The notes: generated by a model not told the origin, from the sequence alone. Numbered from the stretch's first letter, positions 1,687 to 56,739 are shown. The stretch is 64,000 nucleotides of DNA from an uncultured Candidatus Saccharibacteria bacterium (GCA_964652615.1 CAZZAT010000001.1:284337-348336), one strand, 5' to 3'. A program made the numbers and translations.

Positions 1687-2595
1687 CTAGGCAGGGCGCT
1701 TCGAATGGAACTTTTTATGCACTTCCCGCAGATGCGCATCGGTAACGTGCGTATAAATCTGGGTGGTATTTATCGAAGCATGTCCGAGAAGGGCTTGTAC
1801 GCTTCGAATGTCAGCGCCGTTTCCTAAAAGGTCGGTTGCAAAGCTATGGCGAAGGATATGAGGCGTCACTTTCTTTGTAATGCCCGCCTTTGCGGCGTAC
1901 TTCTTCATGATGTTTTGGACGGAGCGAGCGGTAAGGCGCCGTGCCACTTTCTTCGAAGCCTTTTCGTCTGCAAGTACATTCACAAAAAGCGCCTCTTCCA
2001 TATCTTTGCGGCCTTTAAGGTATGCGCGTACCGCCTCTTTGGCAGAAGGGGAGAGGAAGACAACACGCACCTTATCCCCCTTACCACGCACTGAAAATTC
2101 ATCGCGTGAAAGATCGAGGTCGCAGTTCAGGGAGCAAAGCTCGGAAACGCGAAGGCCCGTAGAAAACAAAAGCTCAAGAATGGCGCGGTCTCGAAGCGCT
2201 CTTTGAGAAGTTCCTTTCGTAGAACCGATGAGTCGTTCAAGCTCTGTAGCTGAAATGAGGTCGAGGGAGCGCTCGGGAAGCTTTGCAAGCTCTATGCGCT
2301 CTGGAGAAATACAGGGTATTTCGCGCTTACGCAGAAACTTCAAAAAAGCTCGAAGTGCGATGAGGTAGTAATTCTGGGTGCGGCGCTTCATGGCGCCTTC
2401 AGTTCCTTTCTGACGATTCAGCCAGAGTCTGAATTCGCGTATCTTCTCTTCGGTTATGTCGCTCGTGTCTTTTATTTTTGCCCATTCAAAGAAACGGGAA
2501 AGGTAGTGGTCGTAGTTTTCGACCGTCTTTACGGCACGCCCGCGCTCGATTTCTATGTATTCGAGGAACTGACGTTTCATTGAAGAGGCATCCAT
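1687..2595 (-). CDS. xerC: Tyrosine site-specific recombinase, XerC/XerD family
   Basis: N-terminal SAM-like domain; C-terminal catalytic region ...HILRHSFATDLL...GHASINTTQIYTHV (R..HxxR..Y). Confidence 0.85.
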   Translation of the reverse strand: MDASSMKRQFLEYIEIERGRAVKTVENYDHYLSRFFEWAKIKDTSDITEEKIREFRLWLNRQKGTEGAMKRRTQNYYLIALRAFLKFLRKREIPCISPERIELAKLPERSLDLISATELERLIGSTKGTSQRALRDRAILELLFSTGLRVSELCSLNCDLDLSRDEFSVRGKGDKVRVVFLSPSAKEAVRAYLKGRKDMEEALFVNVLADEKASKKVARRLTARSVQNIMKKYAAKAGITKKVTPHILRHSFATDLLGNGADIRSVQALLGHASINTTQIYTHVTDAHLREVHKKFHSKRPA

Positions 2596-2713
2596 ACTGA
2601 AAGTATAGCCGATGAACTTCGCACAATATGCAATGATGCTACCGCCCGCCGAGGACGGCTCGCACCAGAAAACACTTGCGCTTTTTTACAAGCTGTGGTA
2701 GAGTACGGGGACC

Positions 2714-2980
2714 ATGCTAACAAAGCGCGTAAAGACGGCCCTCGTCAAAGATTCGGGCCGCCACGACAAAGACACTGGATCCCCCGAGGTTCAGGTCGCT
2801 TTGCTTACCCGCCGCATTGATGAATTGACCAAGCATTTGAAGAAGAATGCGAAGGATAACCACTCTCGCCGCGGCCTTCTTCAGATTGTGGCCGATCGCC
2901 GCTCACATCTTCGTTATCTTGAGAAGAATGATAAGCGCCGCTATAACGCGGTTGTGAAAAAGCTCGGATTGAAGAAGTAA
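2714..2980 (+). CDS. rpsO: 30S ribosomal protein S15
   Basis: 88 aa; ...GSPEVQVALLTRRIDELTKHLKKNAKDNHSRRGLL..., characteristic of S15. Confidence 0.9.
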   Translation: MLTKRVKTALVKDSGRHDKDTGSPEVQVALLTRRIDELTKHLKKNAKDNHSRRGLLQIVADRRSHLRYLEKNDKRRYNAVVKKLGLKK

Positions 2981-3071
2981 TCCCGCCAGAAGGCGGGTGC
3001 TTCGTTTGAAGGTGGTAGCATGGGAGAGAGCGACCTTCGCTTTTTAATAAGATTTTTACTATTTCATTTAT

Positions 3072-6312: not shown

Positions 6313-7428
6313 TTAGTTTGCGAGCGGATTCTTTGCACCGCGTACTTCAAAGTGGAGGTGGTATCCGGTAGAGCGACCAGTGTTTCCAACGCCACCAAGC
6401 TTCTCGCCCTTTGAGAGAGACTCGCCTACAGAAACTGAAACTGAAGAAAGGTGCGCGTAGAGGGTCTGCGTACCATTATCGTGCGTGAGTACGACATAGT
6501 TTCCGTAACCACCATTCTCTCTTCCGTCACCTTTCGCTACGATGACTGTACCCGCAGCCGCAGCAAACACGGGCGTACCTTCTGCAATACCAGCAAGGTC
6601 AACACCATTCCAACCGTGAATACCTTGGGAGCGATACGAGCCAGGTACTGGATTACCGAAGTAGCCTGAAAGTTCTGGGGTCACCTTAGTCGTAGCTGGT
6701 GAGCCTGACGAAGCGATTTTTGCAGCAGGCTTCTTTGCAGGAATAAGGTTGCCGCCTGGAATGATGAGTTCTGTACCTGCGGCAAGCGACTCGCTTTCGC
6801 TAATACCGTTGAAGAGTGCTATTTCTTCAACATCAGCATCAAACAGCTTCGCAACATCAGAGAGAGTACCGCCGCTTTTAATGGTATAGCGTACGCCAGA
6901 AACAGGAAGGATGAGGAGCTCATCTCCTGGCTGAATAGTCTTTGCGTCCTTCACATCGTTTGCCCAGAGAATGGTGTTTACTGAGACTTCGAACATGTCT
7001 GCAATTTCTGAAAGGGAATCGCCCTCGCGCACCGTATAGAGGGTAATCTCACCGCCACCCCCGCCGCCCACCGAAGCTGAAGAAAGAGCGCCAACAGGAC
7101 CGCCAGAGGGAATGAGGGCAGAGCCGCCCGTTGTTGCGATAGCAAGCGTACCTTTAGAAGGGTTTGGGTCTGGGTGAGTTGCGGGGTCAAGATACTCAAC
7201 AGAAGCATCGTGAAGAGACGGAATCTCATCAGCGGCTCGTGTCGTTAAGAATGGCCATGAAAAAGCCTCAATGCGTATAGGAAAAGCCGCAAAGACGATT
7301 GCGACTGCGAAGCCTGCGATACCAACCGCGGCTATAGTTTTGTATGCATTTCCGCTTCGCTTAGGGGCGCCAGCTCGGAAAGGATGTTTTGAGGGCAAAA
7401 TAGGGGGTTCAGGGTGTTTCAAATCCAT
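6313..7428 (-). CDS. M23-family metallopeptidase with two LysM domains
   Basis: N-terminal TM; two LysM repeats (YTVREGDSLSEIA..., YTIKSGGTLSDVA...); C-terminal M23 motifs HxxxD...GNTGRSTGYHLHFEV. Confidence 0.85.
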   Translation of the reverse strand: MDLKHPEPPILPSKHPFRAGAPKRSGNAYKTIAAVGIAGFAVAIVFAAFPIRIEAFSWPFLTTRAADEIPSLHDASVEYLDPATHPDPNPSKGTLAIATTGGSALIPSGGPVGALSSASVGGGGGGEITLYTVREGDSLSEIADMFEVSVNTILWANDVKDAKTIQPGDELLILPVSGVRYTIKSGGTLSDVAKLFDADVEEIALFNGISESESLAAGTELIIPGGNLIPAKKPAAKIASSGSPATTKVTPELSGYFGNPVPGSYRSQGIHGWNGVDLAGIAEGTPVFAAAAGTVIVAKGDGRENGGYGNYVVLTHDNGTQTLYAHLSSVSVSVGESLSKGEKLGGVGNTGRSTGYHLHFEVRGAKNPLAN

Positions 7429-18817: not shown

Positions 18818-19243
18818 ATGGAGTACCAAGTTCCTCAATTTATCGAGGTTGAAGATAAGATTTTTGGACCGCTTACCTTAAAGCAGTTCATCTATCTTGC
18901 TGGAGGCGCAGGTCTCTGCGTCGTGCTTCTGCTCTACCTTCCATTTTTCTTTGGCGTACTGCTTGCAATACCGGTAGCCGCTCTCTCTCTTGCGCTTGCG
19001 TTCTATAAGATTAACGGGAAGTCGTTCGTTGAAATGATGGAATACGGCTTTAACTATCTTATAGGGAAGCGCCTGTATCTCTGGAAAAAGGTTAAGGAAC
19101 CGGTTGTGCCGGCAGCAACGCCCGCAGAAACACTAGGAGGAGCCCCCGCCATAGCTCCGAAAGAGGGGTTGTCTCGAAGAAAGCTTGAAGACCTTGCGTG
19201 GGCACTTGATGTAAAGACTGACCGCGACCAAACCATTACGTAG
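18818..19243 (+). CDS. PrgI/VirB3-like small membrane protein
   Basis: MEYQVPQFIEVEDKIFGPLTLKQFIYLAGG followed by two TM helices; immediately precedes VirB4. Confidence 0.5.
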   Translation: MEYQVPQFIEVEDKIFGPLTLKQFIYLAGGAGLCVVLLLYLPFFFGVLLAIPVAALSLALAFYKINGKSFVEMMEYGFNYLIGKRLYLWKKVKEPVVPAATPAETLGGAPAIAPKEGLSRRKLEDLAWALDVKTDRDQTIT

Positions 19244-19247
19244 CCCT

Positions 19248-19883
19248 ATGCCCGAAGCAAACCCAACACAAGCATTCGTTCCCGTAAAAGAAGTCCGTAA
19301 TGGCATTATCATCCTGAAAGACGGAGGGTACCGTGGCGTGCTTATGTGCTCCTCATTAAACTTCGCCCTAAAATCAGAAGATGAGCAGCGCGCCATCATT
19401 GGAGGCTTCCAGAACTTCCTTAATACGCTCGATTTCTCGGTTGAGATAGTGGTGCAGTCTCGCCGCATGGATATACGCCCCTATCTTGCGTTCCTTGAAA
19501 CACTAGAGCCGACCCAGAAGACTGACCTTATGAAGATACAGCTGCGCGAGTACATTCAATTCATTAAGAACTTCATTGAAGGCTCCGACATCATGACGAA
19601 GCTCTTCTACGTCATCGTGCCATTTAACGCAGCCCCAGGAACAGAAGTCGCAAGCGCTCTGCCGTTTCTCCAAAAGAAACCAGAGAAAGCCACTGCAGGA
19701 CTCTCTGGCTCTTTTGAAGAGCATCGTATTCAGCTTGAGCAGCGCATGGGACTCGTGTCTTCCAGCCTTATGTCAACAGGATTACGGGCGGTACCGCTTG
19801 GAACCGAGGAGGTGATAGAGCTTTTGTACCGCTCGTTCAATTCGGGGGATATAGGAGGTCCGATACAACTTACTGAAAAATAA
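19248..19883 (+). CDS. VirB4-like protein, N-terminal domain fragment (split gene)
   Basis: Ends 1 nt before the VirB4 ATPase ORF, in a different frame; the two ORFs together make about 819 aa, the length of a normal VirB4; junction lies at an A5 homopolymer. Confidence 0.5.
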   Translation: MPEANPTQAFVPVKEVRNGIIILKDGGYRGVLMCSSLNFALKSEDEQRAIIGGFQNFLNTLDFSVEIVVQSRRMDIRPYLAFLETLEPTQKTDLMKIQLREYIQFIKNFIEGSDIMTKLFYVIVPFNAAPGTEVASALPFLQKKPEKATAGLSGSFEEHRIQLEQRMGLVSSSLMSTGLRAVPLGTEEVIELLYRSFNSGDIGGPIQLTEK

Positions 19884-19884
19884 T

Positions 19885-21711
19885 ATGGCTCTTCTTGATT
19901 TTCTAAACAAAAAGCATAAGGATGCACAAGCTTCTACGGTCGTTGCGCCGGTGCTTCCGCAGGATATCTATGCGGAAGGAGCGCTCTCTCTTGCGGACAC
20001 CATCGCTCCCGCAGCTTTGAAGGTAAGCGCTAAAGAAATCACGCTTGGCGAGAAGATGTCGCGTACCTTCTATACCATCTCCTACCCGCGCTACCTTACT
20101 GACAGCTGGTTTACGCCGGTTGTAAATATGCCGCAGGTTTTTGATGCATCTATTTTCATTCATCCAGTAGATACAGCACAGGCGCTCCGAGGCTTCCAAC
20201 GAAAGGTAGCCGAGGTACAAAGCCAGATTTCGGAGCGTGCAGAGAAGGGGCTTGTGCGTGATCCGATGCTTGATACTGCCTACCAAGACCTTGAGGCGCT
20301 ACGCGATAACCTCCAACAGGCACAGGAGCGGCTCTTTGATGTAGGCCTCTACCTCACCATATACGGCGACTCGAAGGAGCATCTCGATAAGATTGAAGCG
20401 GAGGTGCGCGGCATACTCGACTCAAGGCTTATCTACACGAAACCTGCTCTCTTTCAGCAGGAACAGGGTTTTCGTTCAACGCTTCCGCTTGCAAACGATG
20501 AACTTGCCGTACATTCGAAGTTAAACTCTTCTCCTCTTTCATCAATCTTCCCATTCGTTTCCTTCGACCTTACAAGTGACAAGGGTATTCTCTTTGGTGT
20601 TAACCGCCACAACGCCTCTCTCATTCTCTTCGACAGGTTTTCACTTGAAAACTACAATTCAGTCGTGTTTGCAAAGTCTGGTTCCGGTAAGTCCTATGCG
20701 GTGAAGCTTGAGATTCTCCGCTCGCTTATGTTTGGAACGGACGTGATTGTTATCGACCCTGAACGCGAGTATGAGTACTTAGCAGAAGCTACCGGCGGAC
20801 GCCTCTTCAACATCTCGCTCTCTTCAGAACACCACATCAATCCGTTTGACCTTCCGCCGGTCAAAGAAGACGAGACGCCTTCTGACATTCTTCGCTCAAA
20901 CATCATTAATCTCGTAGGTCTCTTCCGCATCATGCTTGGCGGCCTTACTCCTGAAGAAGACGCCATTGTCGACAGGGCGATAACCGAGACCTATGCTTTG
21001 AAGGACATAACGGGGGATAGAGACTTTAGCGGTATCGAAGCGCCTCTCTTGTCTGACTTTGAGAACGTACTTTCGGGCATGGCAGGGTCCGAGTCTCTCG
21101 TCGCGCGGCTTTCAAAATACACCCGCGGTACGTGGGCAGGCTTTATGAACCAACCGACAAACGTCGACATCGGGAAGCAATTCATCGTCTTCTCGGTGCG
21201 CGATATGGAAGACGAGTTGAAACCGGTTGCTATGTACATCGTCACGCACTACATATGGAATGCGGTGCGGCGCGATTTGAAAAAGCGCATTCTTGTTATC
21301 GACGAGGCGTGGTGGATGATGAAGTCGGAAGATACTGCTTCCTTCCTCTACAGCCTCGCCAAGCGCGGCCGCAAATACTACCTTGGCGTCTCAACCATAA
21401 CGCAAGACGTTGAAGACTTCCTGAAGAGTCCGTACGGAAAACCTATTCTCACAAACTCCTCAATACAGCTTCTCTTGAAGCAATCGCCCACAACTATCGA
21501 CCTCTTGAAGGACATCTTCAATCTTACTGAAGAAGAGAAGTTCCTTCTTTTGGAGTCTGGGGTGGGAGAGGGCTTGTTCTTTGCGGGCTTGAAGCACGTT
21601 GCCATAAAGATAGTGGCTTCCTATACCGAAGACCAGATTATTACGTCAGATCCATCCCAGCTCCTTGCTATTAAGCGGGAAAAACAACGCCTTGAAATGG
21701 CGAAGGAATAG
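19885..21711 (+). CDS. VirB4/TrbE-family type IV secretion ATPase (C-terminal part)
   Basis: Walker A VVFAKSGSGKSY, Walker B ILVIDEAWWMM, VIDPEREY, TQDVEDF. Confidence 0.8.
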   Translation: MALLDFLNKKHKDAQASTVVAPVLPQDIYAEGALSLADTIAPAALKVSAKEITLGEKMSRTFYTISYPRYLTDSWFTPVVNMPQVFDASIFIHPVDTAQALRGFQRKVAEVQSQISERAEKGLVRDPMLDTAYQDLEALRDNLQQAQERLFDVGLYLTIYGDSKEHLDKIEAEVRGILDSRLIYTKPALFQQEQGFRSTLPLANDELAVHSKLNSSPLSSIFPFVSFDLTSDKGILFGVNRHNASLILFDRFSLENYNSVVFAKSGSGKSYAVKLEILRSLMFGTDVIVIDPEREYEYLAEATGGRLFNISLSSEHHINPFDLPPVKEDETPSDILRSNIINLVGLFRIMLGGLTPEEDAIVDRAITETYALKDITGDRDFSGIEAPLLSDFENVLSGMAGSESLVARLSKYTRGTWAGFMNQPTNVDIGKQFIVFSVRDMEDELKPVAMYIVTHYIWNAVRRDLKKRILVIDEAWWMMKSEDTASFLYSLAKRGRKYYLGVSTITQDVEDFLKSPYGKPILTNSSIQLLLKQSPTTIDLLKDIFNLTEEEKFLLLESGVGEGLFFAGLKHVAIKIVASYTEDQIITSDPSQLLAIKREKQRLEMAKE

Positions 21712-23353: not shown

Positions 23354-24388
23354 ATGAATTTCCTCACCAAAACCCTTCTTGCAGCCGGCGCTCTTGCGCT
23401 TCTTAGCTCTCCCACGCTTCTATTTGCACAAGAAACGGTCGTCTTTACTCCTCTAACCGGCCTTCCAGGACTGACTGATGTAAGCAGCGCGGACGCAATA
23501 GGAGACTTCCTAAACGTCATTTATCGACTCTGTGTAGGTATCGCTGCAACGCTTGCGGTACTGAAGATAATTCAGGCAGGTGTTATGTACATGCGAAGCG
23601 ACAGTATTACCGGACATAAGGAAGCGCGCGACATTATAAAAACATCTTTGCTTGGATTGGTGCTTGTTCTTTCTCCAGCTATTGTCTTCGGCCTCATTGA
23701 TCCTCGTATTTTGAGTCTCTCCCTAAACACAACACCGCTTCAGCTTTCGGAACTTGCGCCACAAAATCCTTCTGGTGGGTTAAACGCTGCCCAAAGGCAA
23801 GTCATAGTTAATGAGGTTGTCGCTGCTGCGCAGGCTTGTGGTGTGCAGGCAACCGAGCAACAGGGGAGATGTTTTCTTGACAGTATGCCTGATACGGAAC
23901 GAACACGCGCTTGTATCCCTGGCATCACCGATGCACAGTTTCAGTGTATGGGAGAAGGAATAATTGAGGCAGGAGAGAGAATGCAAGCTGAAGAAAATCG
24001 CTGCCAAGCAGTAGCACCTATCACTGAAGGTAAAATGGTCTCTGAACAGTATCAAAACTGCTGCGCGCTTGCTGGTTTTCAAGCGGTTCGCTATGGATTC
24101 CGCAACGTAAACTATATGTGCACTAACTCTCCTCCAGAACAAGAAACTTCTCCGATAAATGCCGCCGAAGGAACTTACAATTTTGTGCTCTATGCGCTTT
24201 CTTCAGATGAAACATGTGTTCAACTTGTGCACGGTTCATACCCAGATCAAAGTACATGCACCGCACGGCTTGCCGAAGAACAAAATAGTCGACCTCAATA
24301 CACACCACTCTATTCTTGTGTTATTCCGCCGCTAAATACTTCTTTGTTTAATAAGCCTGTGTGTTCGAACATAACTACTGCAAACTAA
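23354..24388 (+). CDS. VirB2/TrbC-like pilin domain fused to a Cys-rich C-terminal domain
   Basis: Signal peptide, then two hydrophobic helices (...IYRLCVGIAATLAVLKIIQAGV..., ...SLLGLVLVLSPAIVFGLI) typical of T4SS pilins, then ~200 aa with 12 Cys. Confidence 0.45.
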   Translation: MNFLTKTLLAAGALALLSSPTLLFAQETVVFTPLTGLPGLTDVSSADAIGDFLNVIYRLCVGIAATLAVLKIIQAGVMYMRSDSITGHKEARDIIKTSLLGLVLVLSPAIVFGLIDPRILSLSLNTTPLQLSELAPQNPSGGLNAAQRQVIVNEVVAAAQACGVQATEQQGRCFLDSMPDTERTRACIPGITDAQFQCMGEGIIEAGERMQAEENRCQAVAPITEGKMVSEQYQNCCALAGFQAVRYGFRNVNYMCTNSPPEQETSPINAAEGTYNFVLYALSSDETCVQLVHGSYPDQSTCTARLAEEQNSRPQYTPLYSCVIPPLNTSLFNKPVCSNITTAN

Positions 24389-37953: not shown

Positions 37954-39624
37954 CTAATTAGGAAGGTCTACCGTTCTTCGCACTTCCTCAAGAGTCGTGA
38001 CGCCAGCGAGCGCTTTAACGACAGCATCTTGTGTCATGGTGAGATACCCTTGGCGCACCACGTGCTTTGCAATATCTCCTTCAGACGGGTTATCGCGAAG
38101 GAAGGTACCAAGTTCTTCATCCATAAAGATAGCTTCGTGTACGCCGGTACGTCCTTTGTATCCGGTTGTACCGTCTTCACCTGGAACGGCGTCATACAAC
38201 GTATCAAAAGAAGCGGGGCGTAGCGTTTCATCTCCAAGGTTTTCAAACACTTTCTCCATAACGCGCTTTTCTTCGTCGGTAGCAGGACGCGCTTTCTTTG
38301 TGGTCTGATCGAGTGTGCGAAGGAGGCGCTGCGCCATGGCAACCGTAATAGCAGATGCGAATGACTTTGGATCAACACCAAGATCTACAAGGCGGGGGAA
38401 GGTACCAGCCGCGTTATTTGTGTGAAGCGTTGAGAAGACAAAGTGTCCCGTGAGCGCAGCCTGTATTGCTGTCTCTGCCACCTCTTTGTCGCGGATTTCT
38501 CCTACGAGAATAATGTCAGGGTCTTGGCGGAGTACCGAGCGAAGACCAGAAGCAAAGGTGTAGTTCTTTCCGTCAGTTTGTGTTTGGACGATACCCTCGA
38601 GGTGGTATTCGACGGGATCTTCAATCGTCACAATCTTTGTCTGTGGCGTATGGAGTTCGCGAAGGAAGGTATACAGCGTCGTTGTTTTACCAGAACCGGT
38701 AGGGCCGGTGGTAAGGAGCATGCCGTTTGGACGCTGTATTTCGCGGCGCAATTGCGCAAGGAGTTTCCCGTGTACGCCCATGTCCTCAAAGGAGCGGTTC
38801 AGGGTGTTCGGGTCGAGAATACGCAGCACGATAGCTTCTCCATAGTTTCCAGGAATAACCGAAGCGCGCACCTCTATTTCTTTCCCGCGAACCGCAATAG
38901 TGAAGCGTCCGTCTTGCGCTTGGTTTTCAATGTTCAGCTTCAAACCAGAAAGGAGCTTCACGCGGGAATTCAATTGTTTATACGTACGCGGGTCAAAGTC
39001 GTACGCATCTTGGAGAAGGCCGTCGAGGCGAAGGCGAAGGCGTACTGCTTTCTCTTCCGGCTCGATGTGAATGTCAGACGCTTTCATGGAAAGGGCAGCG
39101 GCAATGATGTCCTCAAAGACACGAGAAACTTGCGCCGCTTTCCCGCCGCCCAAGAGTTCATCGAGGTGTGCGTGTAGGGCGCTAAGGCTTGCAAAGGATT
39201 CTGAAAGCTTGTCGAAGTCTTGTGCAGAAATATCAAACACGCCAGCAGTGGTTACGTGCGCATATGAAAGGTCTTCGTAGCGGGCAAGTGCTTTTTCAAG
39301 GCTTCGTCCTGAAACCATGAACTTCTCAAGAAGAAAATCACGTCCTTCAAGATCGGCGTATACATTGGCAAGCTCTGGATTTTGAGGACTGCGCACGGCA
39401 ACAGAAAGTTTCTTGCCCGCACGATCAAAAGCAACAATTTCGGCCTTGCGCGCCGTCTCTTCGCTAATCAAGCGAAGCGCATCGACGTTTACCGGCACGA
39501 CCGAAAGGTCGGTATACGTTAAGCCGTACTTATCTGAAAGGATGCGAGCAAGATCCTCTTCCTCCTTTTCACGAAGTTCTGCAAGCTTCTTATCCTCTGC
39601 GTCAGTATCGAATTTCTGGGGCAT
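37954..39624 (-). CDS. pilB: Type IV pilus assembly ATPase PilB (GspE family)
   Basis: Walker A LLTTGPTGSGKTTTLY; Asp/His boxes; Walker B ILVGEIRD; 556 aa. Confidence 0.85.
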   Translation of the reverse strand: MPQKFDTDAEDKKLAELREKEEEDLARILSDKYGLTYTDLSVVPVNVDALRLISEETARKAEIVAFDRAGKKLSVAVRSPQNPELANVYADLEGRDFLLEKFMVSGRSLEKALARYEDLSYAHVTTAGVFDISAQDFDKLSESFASLSALHAHLDELLGGGKAAQVSRVFEDIIAAALSMKASDIHIEPEEKAVRLRLRLDGLLQDAYDFDPRTYKQLNSRVKLLSGLKLNIENQAQDGRFTIAVRGKEIEVRASVIPGNYGEAIVLRILDPNTLNRSFEDMGVHGKLLAQLRREIQRPNGMLLTTGPTGSGKTTTLYTFLRELHTPQTKIVTIEDPVEYHLEGIVQTQTDGKNYTFASGLRSVLRQDPDIILVGEIRDKEVAETAIQAALTGHFVFSTLHTNNAAGTFPRLVDLGVDPKSFASAITVAMAQRLLRTLDQTTKKARPATDEEKRVMEKVFENLGDETLRPASFDTLYDAVPGEDGTTGYKGRTGVHEAIFMDEELGTFLRDNPSEGDIAKHVVRQGYLTMTQDAVVKALAGVTTLEEVRRTVDLPN

Positions 39625-49557: not shown

Positions 49558-50640
49558 ATGAACGCTCTTTCGAGGTTTCTGCGCGTTGAATTTGCACCGC
49601 CCTCCTATCTTTCTCTCCCTACCGCAGGCATTGATATTTCAACGAGCGGGATAAAGATAGCGTGCATTAAGGAACACATGCACGGTCTTGAACTCGCTTC
49701 ATTTGCTGAAGAGGCGCTTCCGTCGGGCGCCGTGGTTGGAGGAGAAATACGTGATCCGCATGCGGTTATCGAAGGAGTGCGCAAACTTGCGCACGAGCAC
49801 AACATACGTCTTGCAAATGTGGCGCTGCCTGAAGCGCGCGGCTATCTCTTTGAAGCTGAAGTTCCCGCAGGCACCAAGAACGAGCAGCGGGTTGCGGTTG
49901 AGCGCAAGCTCGATGAGTATGTGCCGCTTCCTTCAGGTGAAGTTATTTTTGATATTGCTCCTGTGGGGAAGTCAGATGCAGGTATGCGTGTGGTTGGTAC
50001 CGGCTATGCGCGCCGTGTCCTTGAAGAGACGCTTGCAGTTATGGACGATGCACACGTTCAGGTGCGCGCCGTTGAAAGCGAAACCTTTGCGCTTCCAAGA
50101 GCACTCTTACCGCACGACAATAAGGAAACCGCACTTATTATCGATATTGGGAAAACCACGACAAAGCTTCTCGTTGTTACAAACCGTCTCCCGCGGTATG
50201 TGACGACCCTTGATATTGGCGGACACGCACTCACACTTGCTGTCGTGAAGCATTTTGGCGTGTCAGAAGAAGAAGCAAAGCAGGTAAAAGCAGAGAAGGG
50301 CATAGCGCCAGGAGCAGGAAATGAAGAGTATCTTGCTTCCATGCTTTCAACAGTTTCAGTTATCCGTGATGAAATAGGGAAGCGTCTCGACTACTGGCAA
50401 TCAAGATCTGGACAGGTCGATGCGGTGACACGGGCTGTGTTGGTTGGAGGAAACGCAACGGTGCTTGGCCTTCCTGAATATCTTGAGGCAGCACTTAAGG
50501 TGCCGGTGGCGCTTGGCGATGTGTTTGCGAACTTCGCATCAAGAAATGTCTGGCTCCCGCCCCTTGAGTATCAGGAGTCGCTTGCTTACGGCACAGCGAT
50601 AGGTCTGGCGCTCCGCGAGCAAGCAGCAGTATCTCTATGA
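49558..50640 (+). CDS. pilM: Type IV pilus assembly protein PilM (actin-like ATPase)
   Basis: ...GIDISTSGIKIACIK...DIGKTTTKLLVV...LVGGNATVLGLPEYL; precedes pilN/pilO. Confidence 0.8.
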   Translation: MNALSRFLRVEFAPPSYLSLPTAGIDISTSGIKIACIKEHMHGLELASFAEEALPSGAVVGGEIRDPHAVIEGVRKLAHEHNIRLANVALPEARGYLFEAEVPAGTKNEQRVAVERKLDEYVPLPSGEVIFDIAPVGKSDAGMRVVGTGYARRVLEETLAVMDDAHVQVRAVESETFALPRALLPHDNKETALIIDIGKTTTKLLVVTNRLPRYVTTLDIGGHALTLAVVKHFGVSEEEAKQVKAEKGIAPGAGNEEYLASMLSTVSVIRDEIGKRLDYWQSRSGQVDAVTRAVLVGGNATVLGLPEYLEAALKVPVALGDVFANFASRNVWLPPLEYQESLAYGTAIGLALREQAAVSL

Positions 50641-56031: not shown

Positions 56032-56739
56032 ATGTGGCTTCCGTACCATTTGGGTATGGGAAAGATAGTGCAAAAGCCTAGTAGAGGGGACGTAGAGTGG
56101 TCACCTGATTTTTCCTATGCAATTGGTCTGTTAGCTAGTGATGGATGCGTTTCATCCGATGGACGCCATCTCACACTTGTTTCAAAGGATAGAGAACAGC
56201 TTGAAAATCTCGTCAGATGCTTGCGTTTACACGCGGCAATAAAATCAGACAGGATTCAATGGAGTGATGCGCGTCTGCATAAATTCCTCTGCTCCATCGG
56301 GATATCTCCTCGAAAATCATTAACACTCGGCGCGATAGACATACCTCCCAAATACTTCTTCAACTTTCTTCGCGGTTTATTTGATGGAGATGGAAGCTTT
56401 TACAGCTATTTCGATAAACGATGGCGCTCAAGCTTTATGTTCTATCTCAGTTTTACCTCCGCTAGTCCTGCACACATAGAATGGATACGGACTACGCTTG
56501 AATATAGATTGTGCGTTAAGGGTCATATCTCTAGAGTACCTCCCAGGCATGGAAAGAAAGGATGCGAAACTTTACGATATGCGAAAAGGGAAGCGGTGAA
56601 AATAATGCGTTGTATGTATGCTGGCCAAGGACCCTCATTGTCGCGGAAGCGCTTGAAAATAGAAGAAGCACTGCGTATAGTGGGCGAGTCCCTTAGAGAT
56701 AATGCCCAGGTGTTGAAATTGGTAGACATCATACCTTGA
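56032..56739 (+). CDS. LAGLIDADG-family homing endonuclease (two-motif, free-standing)
   Basis: Motif 1 AIGLLASDGCVS, motif 2 LRGLFDGDGSF; 3' end overlaps tRNA-Leu by 36 nt. Confidence 0.75.
   Translation: MWLPYHLGMGKIVQKPSRGDVEWSPDFSYAIGLLASDGCVSSDGRHLTLVSKDREQLENLVRCLRLHAAIKSDRIQWSDARLHKFLCSIGISPRKSLTLGAIDIPPKYFFNFLRGLFDGDGSFYSYFDKRWRSSFMFYLSFTSASPAHIEWIRTTLEYRLCVKGHISRVPPRHGKKGCETLRYAKREAVKIMRCMYAGQGPSLSRKRLKIEEALRIVGESLRDNAQVLKLVDIIP

Follow-up and report, generated by a model that had tools for sequence, protein, structure and literature searches.

The mature pilins of classical conjugative systems are small proteins of about 7–12 kDa without any extra domain, and pilins of the TrbC/VirB2 superfamily polymerise with phospholipid into a 5-start helical pilus. 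VirB2 and TrbC are cyclised head to tail, with a TraF-type peptidase acting in the P-type case, and C-terminal processing is established for the P-type pilins, RP4 TrbC being trimmed at its C terminus. The known tip proteins (VirB5/TraC type) form a family distinct from the pilins. In flagellin (domains D2/D3) and in type IV pilins (disulfide-bonded variable region), a conserved polymerising core is combined with a hypervariable surface domain. To our knowledge, no pilus has been shown for any type IV secretion system (T4SS) of Patescibacteria.

VirB2-like pilins encoded near virB4 were reported in 1135 assemblies of Patescibacteria (Quinonero-Coronel et al. 2025, PMC12102498). As described there, these pilins are small and are often encoded in arrays of 2–11 divergent paralogues, especially in Saccharimonadia and Microgenomatia, and the loci specify an MPF-FATA-like T4SS with VirB4, PrgI/VirB3 and VirB6, carry no relaxase and often lie near dnaA. 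The same paper relates that the tandem arrays of VirB2 paralogues in Bartonella and Anaplasma are thought to diversify the pilus surface. Related T4SS genes, including the pilin arrays, were essential for epibiotic growth in the one Saccharibacterium tested (PMC10633639), and the T4SS of Patescibacteria is described as the only monoderm T4SS suspected of pilus formation (PMC12857230).

The window examined here, that is, the whole 64-kb stretch of DNA that was analysed, contains a locus of this kind. Its pilin-like protein belongs to the same profile family (PF18895) as the VirB2-like pilins described in PMC12102498 and PMC10633639; the T4SS is of the same type and site as in the published loci, and the operon arrangement given for Paceibacteria in PMC12102498 is the same as that of the window. 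Because VirB2-like pilins have already been published, a locus of this kind with a pilin-like gene in it is known biology, as are the T4SS and its origin-proximal site. What seems to be new is a fused, hypervariable and modular Cys-rich ectodomain, which is the rule in a large clade of Paceibacteria. Whereas the published pilins are small and often arrayed, this clade has one gene per locus, and the variability resides in the fused ectodomain of 100–290 aa. No mention of such a fused extension was found in the available portions of PMC12102498, PMC10633639 and a 2025 T4SS review, and a full-text literature search on Patescibacteria, T4SS and cysteine-rich returned nothing relevant.

The region is a chromosomal type IV secretion operon near the replication origin, in which a relaxase was not found. 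Eleven genes run in the same direction, and the pilin-like gene is the tenth of them; the last three are only 1–2 bases apart (table 1). Their order is g310, g500, VirB6-like, g256 (coding for a 256-aa proline-rich protein, between the VirB6-like and PrgI genes), PrgI, VirB4N, VirB4, g208, g336, pilin and g413; these are followed by yidC on the minus strand and then by dnaA and dnaN. The pilin gene begins 1.6 kb past virB4, and 2.6 kb separate its end from dnaA further downstream. When one genome per species was scanned, 80 related loci emerged, and gene order was almost invariant in the 80 Paceibacteria-type species genomes. Orthologues of the 820-aa protein matched the TrbL/VirB6 family (PF04610) in 9 of 30 cases, with a best E-value of 2.2e-6. 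The genes next to the pilin gene recur as well: the 336-aa upstream partner was found in 79 and the 413-aa downstream partner in 78 of 81 loci. The upstream partner had no family match, and its profile gave no significant match to PDB sequences; the profile of the downstream partner likewise retrieved nothing significant from PDB sequences, a TolB-like match (E 0.09) being no more than a weak indication. Among the window ORFs scanned, neither a relaxase nor a coupling-protein domain was detected. The VirB3-, VirB4- and VirB6-like genes of the operon bear out the T4SS setting which an earlier note on this DNA had assumed.

Table 1. Positions of the operon genes and of the features of the pilin-like protein, counted from the first base of the window; residue numbers refer to the pilin-like protein.
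Feature	Residues	Position	Strand	Remarks
Two conserved operon genes, 310 aa and 500 aa		13111..15542	+	No assigned role
Polytopic VirB6/TrbL-like protein, 820 aa		15549..18011	+	Hydrophobic segments
PrgI/VirB3-like protein		18818..19243	+	
N-terminal part of VirB4 (TrsD-like)		19248..19883	+	Separate ORF
VirB4-type ATPase, C-terminal part		19885..21711	+	CD1110 family, E 4e-110
Conserved membrane protein, 208 aa		21715..22341	+	
Upstream partner, 336 aa		22341..23351	+	Signal/anchor and beta-rich region; abuts pilin gene
Gene for pilin core and Cys-rich ectodomain		23354..24388	+	ATG start, 344 aa plus stop
Signal peptide	1–25	23354..23428	+	Hydropathy; probable cleavage after A25 (LLFA|QE)
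Mature N-terminal motif F-x-P-L-T-x-L-P-G	31–39	23444..23470	+	Conserved
Pilin hairpin helix 1	49–80	23498..23593	+	Hydrophobic; hydropathy, AlphaFold2, within PF18895 match 46–115
Short polar/basic loop, RSDSITGHKEARDIIK	81–96	23594..23641	+	From sequence; predicted cytoplasmic side
Hydrophobic helix 2	97–115	23642..23698	+	Contains invariant G101-L-x-L-V-L-S-P motif
Boundary motif D-P-R-I-L-x-L	116–122	23699..23719	+	Invariant; outer end of helix 2
Flexible linker	123–142	23720..23779	+	Low confidence, pLDDT <50 at residues 120–138
Module A	143–200	23780..23953	+	Helical; two C-x10-C repeats (C162/C173, C187/C198)
Module B	214–258	23993..24127	+	C217, C236-C237, C256; C...CC...C pattern
Module C	268–344	24155..24385	+	Four strands and one helix; C288, C302, C322, C337 invariant
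Downstream partner, 413 aa		24390..25631	+	N-terminal anchor, acidic linker, beta-rich domain

Hydropathy analysis of the window protein revealed three hydrophobic stretches (residues 7–26, ~52–79 and ~93–122), and the full-length AlphaFold2 model contains helices at residues 49–81 and 85–115. The signal peptide is probably cut after A25; an A or G at position −1 and a V, A or L at position −3 of the putative cleavage site are retained in orthologues. In the motif that follows, F31, P33, L34 and P38 are invariant or almost so among orthologues. An additional Cys (C60), the thirteenth of the protein, lies inside helix 1. The loop between the helices carries three basic residues (R81, K89 and R92), with the consensus DSVTEKKEAR/K in orthologues; according to the positive-inside rule and the position of the equivalent loop in the VirB2 T-pilus, it would lie on the cytoplasmic side. 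Hydropathy and the model agree on the pilin layout of a signal peptide, two hydrophobic helices and a short basic loop, and together with the T4SS gene cluster these features are shared with Agrobacterium VirB2, RP4 TrbC and F TraA. In size, however, the protein departs from TrbC/VirB2 pilins, for which ~70–120 mature residues and no extra globular domain are expected: the predicted mature form has about 319 residues, some 200 of which make up an ectodomain that is modelled as folded with high confidence. Head-to-tail cyclisation is implausible for a protein with a 220-aa tail. Two further differences from classical pilins are that the host is a monoderm and that a TraF-like maturase was not found: the search for a signal peptidase or such a maturase, proposed in the earlier note, retrieved neither these nor any other protease from the operon or the window ORFs scanned. 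An identical protein is also encoded on public contigs.

To which family the hydrophobic core belongs was examined with profile searches. The window protein itself matched the Pfam family T4SS_pilin (PF18895) with an E-value of 0.002 and 18.6 bits, below the cut-off of 26.6, although the match spans profile positions 2–71 of 71 (residues 46–115). Its match to TrbC/VirB2 (PF04956) was weaker (E 0.26, 12 bits, below the cut-off of 27.9), and the NCBIfam Mbov_0395 pilin-like family (NF045849) was matched with an E-value of 0.001. When 77 orthologues were scanned one by one (E ≤ 0.01 for both Pfam profiles), PF18895 was matched by 69 of them (best 2.8e-12) and PF04956 by 38 (best 3.6e-7), and the Mbov_0395 family, known from Mycoplasma integrative elements (ICEs), by 22 (best 2.3e-6). 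Several database homologues also carry a precomputed PF18895 match and the NCBI name "pilin". On these profile matches, the N-terminal core can be assigned, at the level of the family, to the VirB2/TrbC pilin superfamily, in agreement with the view that the first ~120 residues are VirB2/TrbC-like. The opposite possibility named in the earlier note, a generic transmembrane anchor unrelated to pilins, was rejected in view of the same family-level Pfam matches. Structure searches gave little for the core, which is expected for a two-helix hairpin: a Foldseek search of the full model against the PDB retrieved no solved pilin, neither VirB2 nor TraA, and the core profile searched against PDB sequences found VirB2 (8exh) only at E 1.6, as noise among GPCRs and designed coiled coils.

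The extension behind the core is rich in Cys, as the earlier note had described. Its 220 residues contain 12 Cys (positions 162, 173, 187, 198, 217, 236, 237, 256, 288, 302, 322 and 337), and all seven Cys motifs quoted in that note are present in the protein. Cys makes up 5.5% of the extension versus 1.3% across all long ORFs of the window, and 12 or more Cys in 220 residues have a binomial probability of 3.5e-5. For comparison, we used 76 full orthologues, all from genomes of different species. The sequence behind their core has a median length of 171 aa (range 31–293) and contains 5.6% Cys, and it reaches 100 aa or more in 69 of them. The proposal that such a domain on a T4SS pilin subunit is not standard therefore holds for the classical VirB2/TrbC proteins but not for this clade, in which the extended form is the norm; this recurrence in 69 of 76 species also rules out a chance ORF or an artefact of fusion or assembly. 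The number of Cys in the extension is even in 74 of the 76 orthologues (P = 4e-20 if odd and even numbers are taken as equally likely), and 10 is the commonest number. Such even counts would be expected if all Cys were paired in extracellular disulfides; six disulfides are predicted for the ectodomain of the window protein. No Dsb-type or other disulfide-forming enzyme was detected among the window ORFs scanned.

Conservation of the extension lies mainly in its Cys. Columns with Cys are 80–100% conserved within modules, and the remaining columns average 30–44%; all 12 Cys are kept in the four closest relatives of the same architecture, so the Cys spacing, which had been proposed as a check, is conserved in orthologues. 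The median identity to the window proteins is 0.83 for VirB4, 0.80 for DnaA and 0.48 for the pilin core. For the extension it is 0.23, compared with 0.21 in a shuffled control. The sequence of the extension is hypervariable, with identity at the random level. No Pfam or NCBIfam family recurrently covers it: DUF4329 was matched in 1 of 77 orthologues, and the rest were single weak matches.

Within the extension, three modules with four Cys each can be distinguished (table 1), which are gained, lost and reordered between lineages. With N as the pilin core, the architectures N-A-B-C, N-B-C, N-A-C, N-C and A-A-N were seen, and 82 of 113 family members bear other Cys-rich sequence that is unrecognised by the three module profiles. 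In some relatives, such as P0030 with 16 Cys, Cys-rich segments follow the signal peptide and precede the core, as would be expected if the two ends of the hairpin both face outward. Short relatives of 90–179 aa that consist of the core only are common, and one of them, of 135 aa, is encoded by yidC and dnaA in the place of the long form, flanked by genes of the 336-aa and 413-aa types. The extension is thus an accessory to a self-sufficient core. When the extension alone was searched against 1.84 billion representatives, 8 proteins were found, all of 276–375 aa, and in all of them the match falls C-terminal to about residue 117, past the pilin core. Searching the module C profile against a collection of 5.8 billion proteins gave 0 matches, even to the family's own members, a query too short and variable to be informative on distribution.

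The border between core and extension raises the possibility of a pro-protein, which would be cut near D-P-R-I-L-x-L or in the linker to yield a small pilin and a soluble, secreted Cys-rich factor. Such a cut would fit the invariant motif and the disordered linker behind it, which meet exactly at this boundary, and also the fact that the short forms stop soon after the motif; the C-terminal processing of P-type pilins offers an analogy. However, D-P-R-I-L-x-L is also present, and equally conserved, in short forms which have no extension and nothing to release, so that it more probably belongs to the core. The operon has no gene for a TraF-like peptidase or another protease, and in some relatives the Cys-rich modules precede the core, from where a single C-terminal cut would not release them. 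We consider processing of this kind improbable.

Structure prediction and a Foldseek search, which the earlier note had suggested for the extension, gave a confident ectodomain model and no known fold. The mean pLDDT is 74.8 for the full-length AlphaFold2 model, in which residues 120–138 form a disordered linker. Modelled alone, the ectodomain (residues 140–344) reached a pLDDT of 91.3 and a pTM of 0.63, and module A had pLDDT values of 92–97 in this model. Foldseek found no match under E 0.4 in the PDB with the full-length model and no match under E 0.15 among viral models, and no PDB sequence was matched when the whole protein served as a single-sequence query. As modelled, the extension is without a known fold or family among the PDB, viral models, Pfam and NCBIfam. 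Neither a lectin-like fold nor an adhesin family nor a binding partner was detected for the ectodomain, and there was no match in sequence or fold to T4SS tip or adhesin proteins (VirB5/TraC type, or PrgB type of monoderm systems). A sortase-anchored surface protein was also considered and rejected, as the sequence has no visible LPXTG-type motif.

The number of pilin genes bears on the position of the protein in a putative filament. Searches with two different profiles detected no second pilin-like ORF in the 64-kb window, and 79 of 81 related loci likewise have a single pilin gene. As the sole pilin of its locus, the protein would be the main subunit rather than a minor one at the tip; the tip adhesin envisaged in the earlier note is therefore not favoured. 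In such an arrangement, a separate short pilin would make the shaft and the window protein would cap it. The variable, Cys-rich ectodomain does look adhesin-like, closely related short pilins do occur in other genomes, and pilin genes elsewhere in this genome are possible, as the window covers 64 kb of it. On the other hand, where a short form occurs it takes the slot of the long one instead of standing beside it, and the window protein has no Pfam match to tip proteins of the VirB5/TraC type. We give this arrangement little credence.

At somewhat better than even confidence, we propose that the protein is the single VirB2-like subunit of a chromosomal T4SS, with no relaxase detected, in Paceibacteria-type Patescibacteria, and that its conserved core displays a lineage-specific surface module. 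In this proposal, the Sec signal peptide would be removed after A25, and the two helices would be inserted as a hairpin with the basic loop in the cytoplasm and both ends facing outward, as in VirB2. The C-terminal 220 residues would fold extracellularly into three small modules with two disulfides each. The conserved core would then serve the function shared by all these pilins: together with the VirB6/VirB3/VirB4 machine, it would be assembled into a pilus or into a short conduit across the wall. An ectodomain would project from every subunit, forming a lineage-specific surface. The most likely role of the ectodomain would be host-cell recognition or adhesion.

The geometry of the T-pilus is informative in this respect. 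In that filament, which has an outer diameter of 79.6 Å and a 5-start helix with a rise of 13.9 Å, the C-terminal Gly121 is the outermost measured residue and Arg91 of the loop is the innermost, pointing into the lumen (10.1101/2022.04.28.489814). By analogy, a C-terminal extension would project outward. A domain of ~23 kDa on each subunit would, by our estimate, form a densely packed shell at least ~37 Å thick, giving a filament of at least 15 nm. Such packing of decorated subunits is possible but would be feasible only if ordered, and it has no precedent in the VirB2-type family.

Another explanation is a membrane subunit that does not polymerise. The hairpin would be a permanent anchor in the inner complex of the T4SS beside VirB6/VirB3, no pilus would be made, and the ectodomain would span the thin wall or S-layer as a module for surface recognition or gating. 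Monoderm T4SSs are generally without pili (PMC12102498, PMC12857230), and a bulky domain on each subunit would be awkward for helical packing, judging from the T-pilus. The core also resembles the pilin-like membrane protein of Mycoplasma ICEs: Mbov_0395 and MMCAP2_0565 are likewise two-helix pilin-like proteins associated with a T4SS in a bacterium without an outer membrane, although the scores of the window protein and its orthologues against NF045849 are far below its 40-bit cut-off and this 80-position model does not include an ectodomain. However, the core matches the profiles of bona fide pilus-forming TrbC/VirB2 proteins, and the common core-only short forms fit a polymerising unit. We regard a permanent anchor as rather unlikely, yet as a serious rival that agrees with the same data as the pilin subunit proposed above.

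A bolder version of the pilin subunit reading can also be formulated, in which Paceibacteria build a filament or conduit of the VirB2 family, each subunit bears a receptor-binding domain that is locked by disulfides and can be swapped, and host range is encoded in the ectodomain. This would be the first decorated T4SS pilus, and we put it forward as a tentative idea that is rather doubtful at present. Other surface structures follow a comparable design logic. Like flagellin and the type IV pilins, the window family combines a conserved core (48% identity) with an outer part whose identity is at the random level, and its variable domains are also gained, lost and swapped; the likeness is one of analogy only and does not imply homology. 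The arrays of Bartonella and Anaplasma, as presented in PMC12102498, resemble the window family in that an exposed pilin surface is diversified in a host-associated bacterium. They differ in that variation arises by duplication of small pilins, whereas here a modular ectodomain is fused to a single-copy gene.

If the bolder version is correct, the host range of these episymbionts would be set by a single pilin gene near the origin, in its modular ectodomain at the C terminus or sometimes the N terminus. Such a gene would be an alternative, in function, to the arrays of several pilin genes described for Saccharibacteria, or for Saccharimonadia and Microgenomatia. The sole pilin gene of its locus in a large Paceibacteria clade, with a conserved core and a hypervariable, modular surface domain, it is a candidate determinant of host specificity. 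The ectodomain may serve as an antigen with which the structure could be labelled and imaged, and the module type as a marker to correlate with host taxa in metagenomes. The VirB2 fold would also be seen to tolerate large terminal fusions in nature, which bears on pilin packing and on its use in surface display.

The pilin gene and the two genes that immediately flank it (table) form a trio adjoining yidC and dnaA, and in related loci from other species genomes the trio stays together even if the operon's VirB4 part does not occur within 10 kb (e.g., L004, L006-L008, and L082). No family was assigned to either the 336-aa or the 413-aa flanking protein; a profile comparison with PDB sequences gave a faint TolB-like hint for the latter (E = 0.09).

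Two of the related loci, L023 and L025, represent rare departures from the rule of one pilin per locus and from the usual gene order. L023 contains two extended pilin genes, one on either side of the 413-aa-type gene. In L025 the 336-aa-type gene is followed by the 413-aa-type gene and then by the pilin.

In some relatives (P0017, P0020, P0021, and P0030), cysteine-rich segments follow the signal peptide and precede the pilin core. Those of P0021 include copies of the C-x10-C helical repeat (x represents any amino acid) that forms module A, the helical segment at residues 143-200 of the window pilin. This repeat lies on the C-terminal side of the core in the window pilin and N-terminal to it in P0021.

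VirB4 is encoded in the window by two adjoining ORFs, and this split is conserved: 57 of the related loci have both parts. Compared with DnaA, the ATPase part shows the higher conservation (median identity 83% vs. 80%).

Coordinates of features in the window and, in the last two lines, in related locus L023
Feature	Position	Strand
LysM + Peptidase_M23 protein	6313-7428	-
UvrD/Rep-type helicase with intein, 1008 aa	7614-10640	+
VirB4 N-terminal part, TrsD-like, 211 aa	19248-19883	+
VirB4 ATPase part, 608 aa	19885-21711	+
Pilin-flanking gene, 336 aa	22341-23351	+
Pilin-flanking gene, 413 aa	24390-25631	+
PilB-type ATPase (type IV pilus)	37954-39624	-
PilM (type IV pilus)	49558-50640	+
LAGLIDADG-type homing endonuclease, free-standing	56032-56739	+
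L023 extended pilin	120-995	
L023 extended pilin	2174-3022	

The intein of the UvrD/Rep-type helicase (Hint and intein-splicing matches at residues ~255-623) separates the N- and C-terminal domains of the helicase. The homing endonuclease ORF immediately follows the gene for ribosomal protein L19.

The LysM/Peptidase_M23 gene lies upstream, approximately 6 kb from the T4SS operon; a 2025 survey (PMC12102498) names proteins of this type as possible substitutes for VirB1 in Patescibacteria. The window also carries type IV pilus genes, namely a PilB-type ATPase, which matches T2SSE (E = 9e-103), and PilM, which is followed by small unassigned ORFs. This genome thus encodes a type IV pilus system alongside the T4SS.
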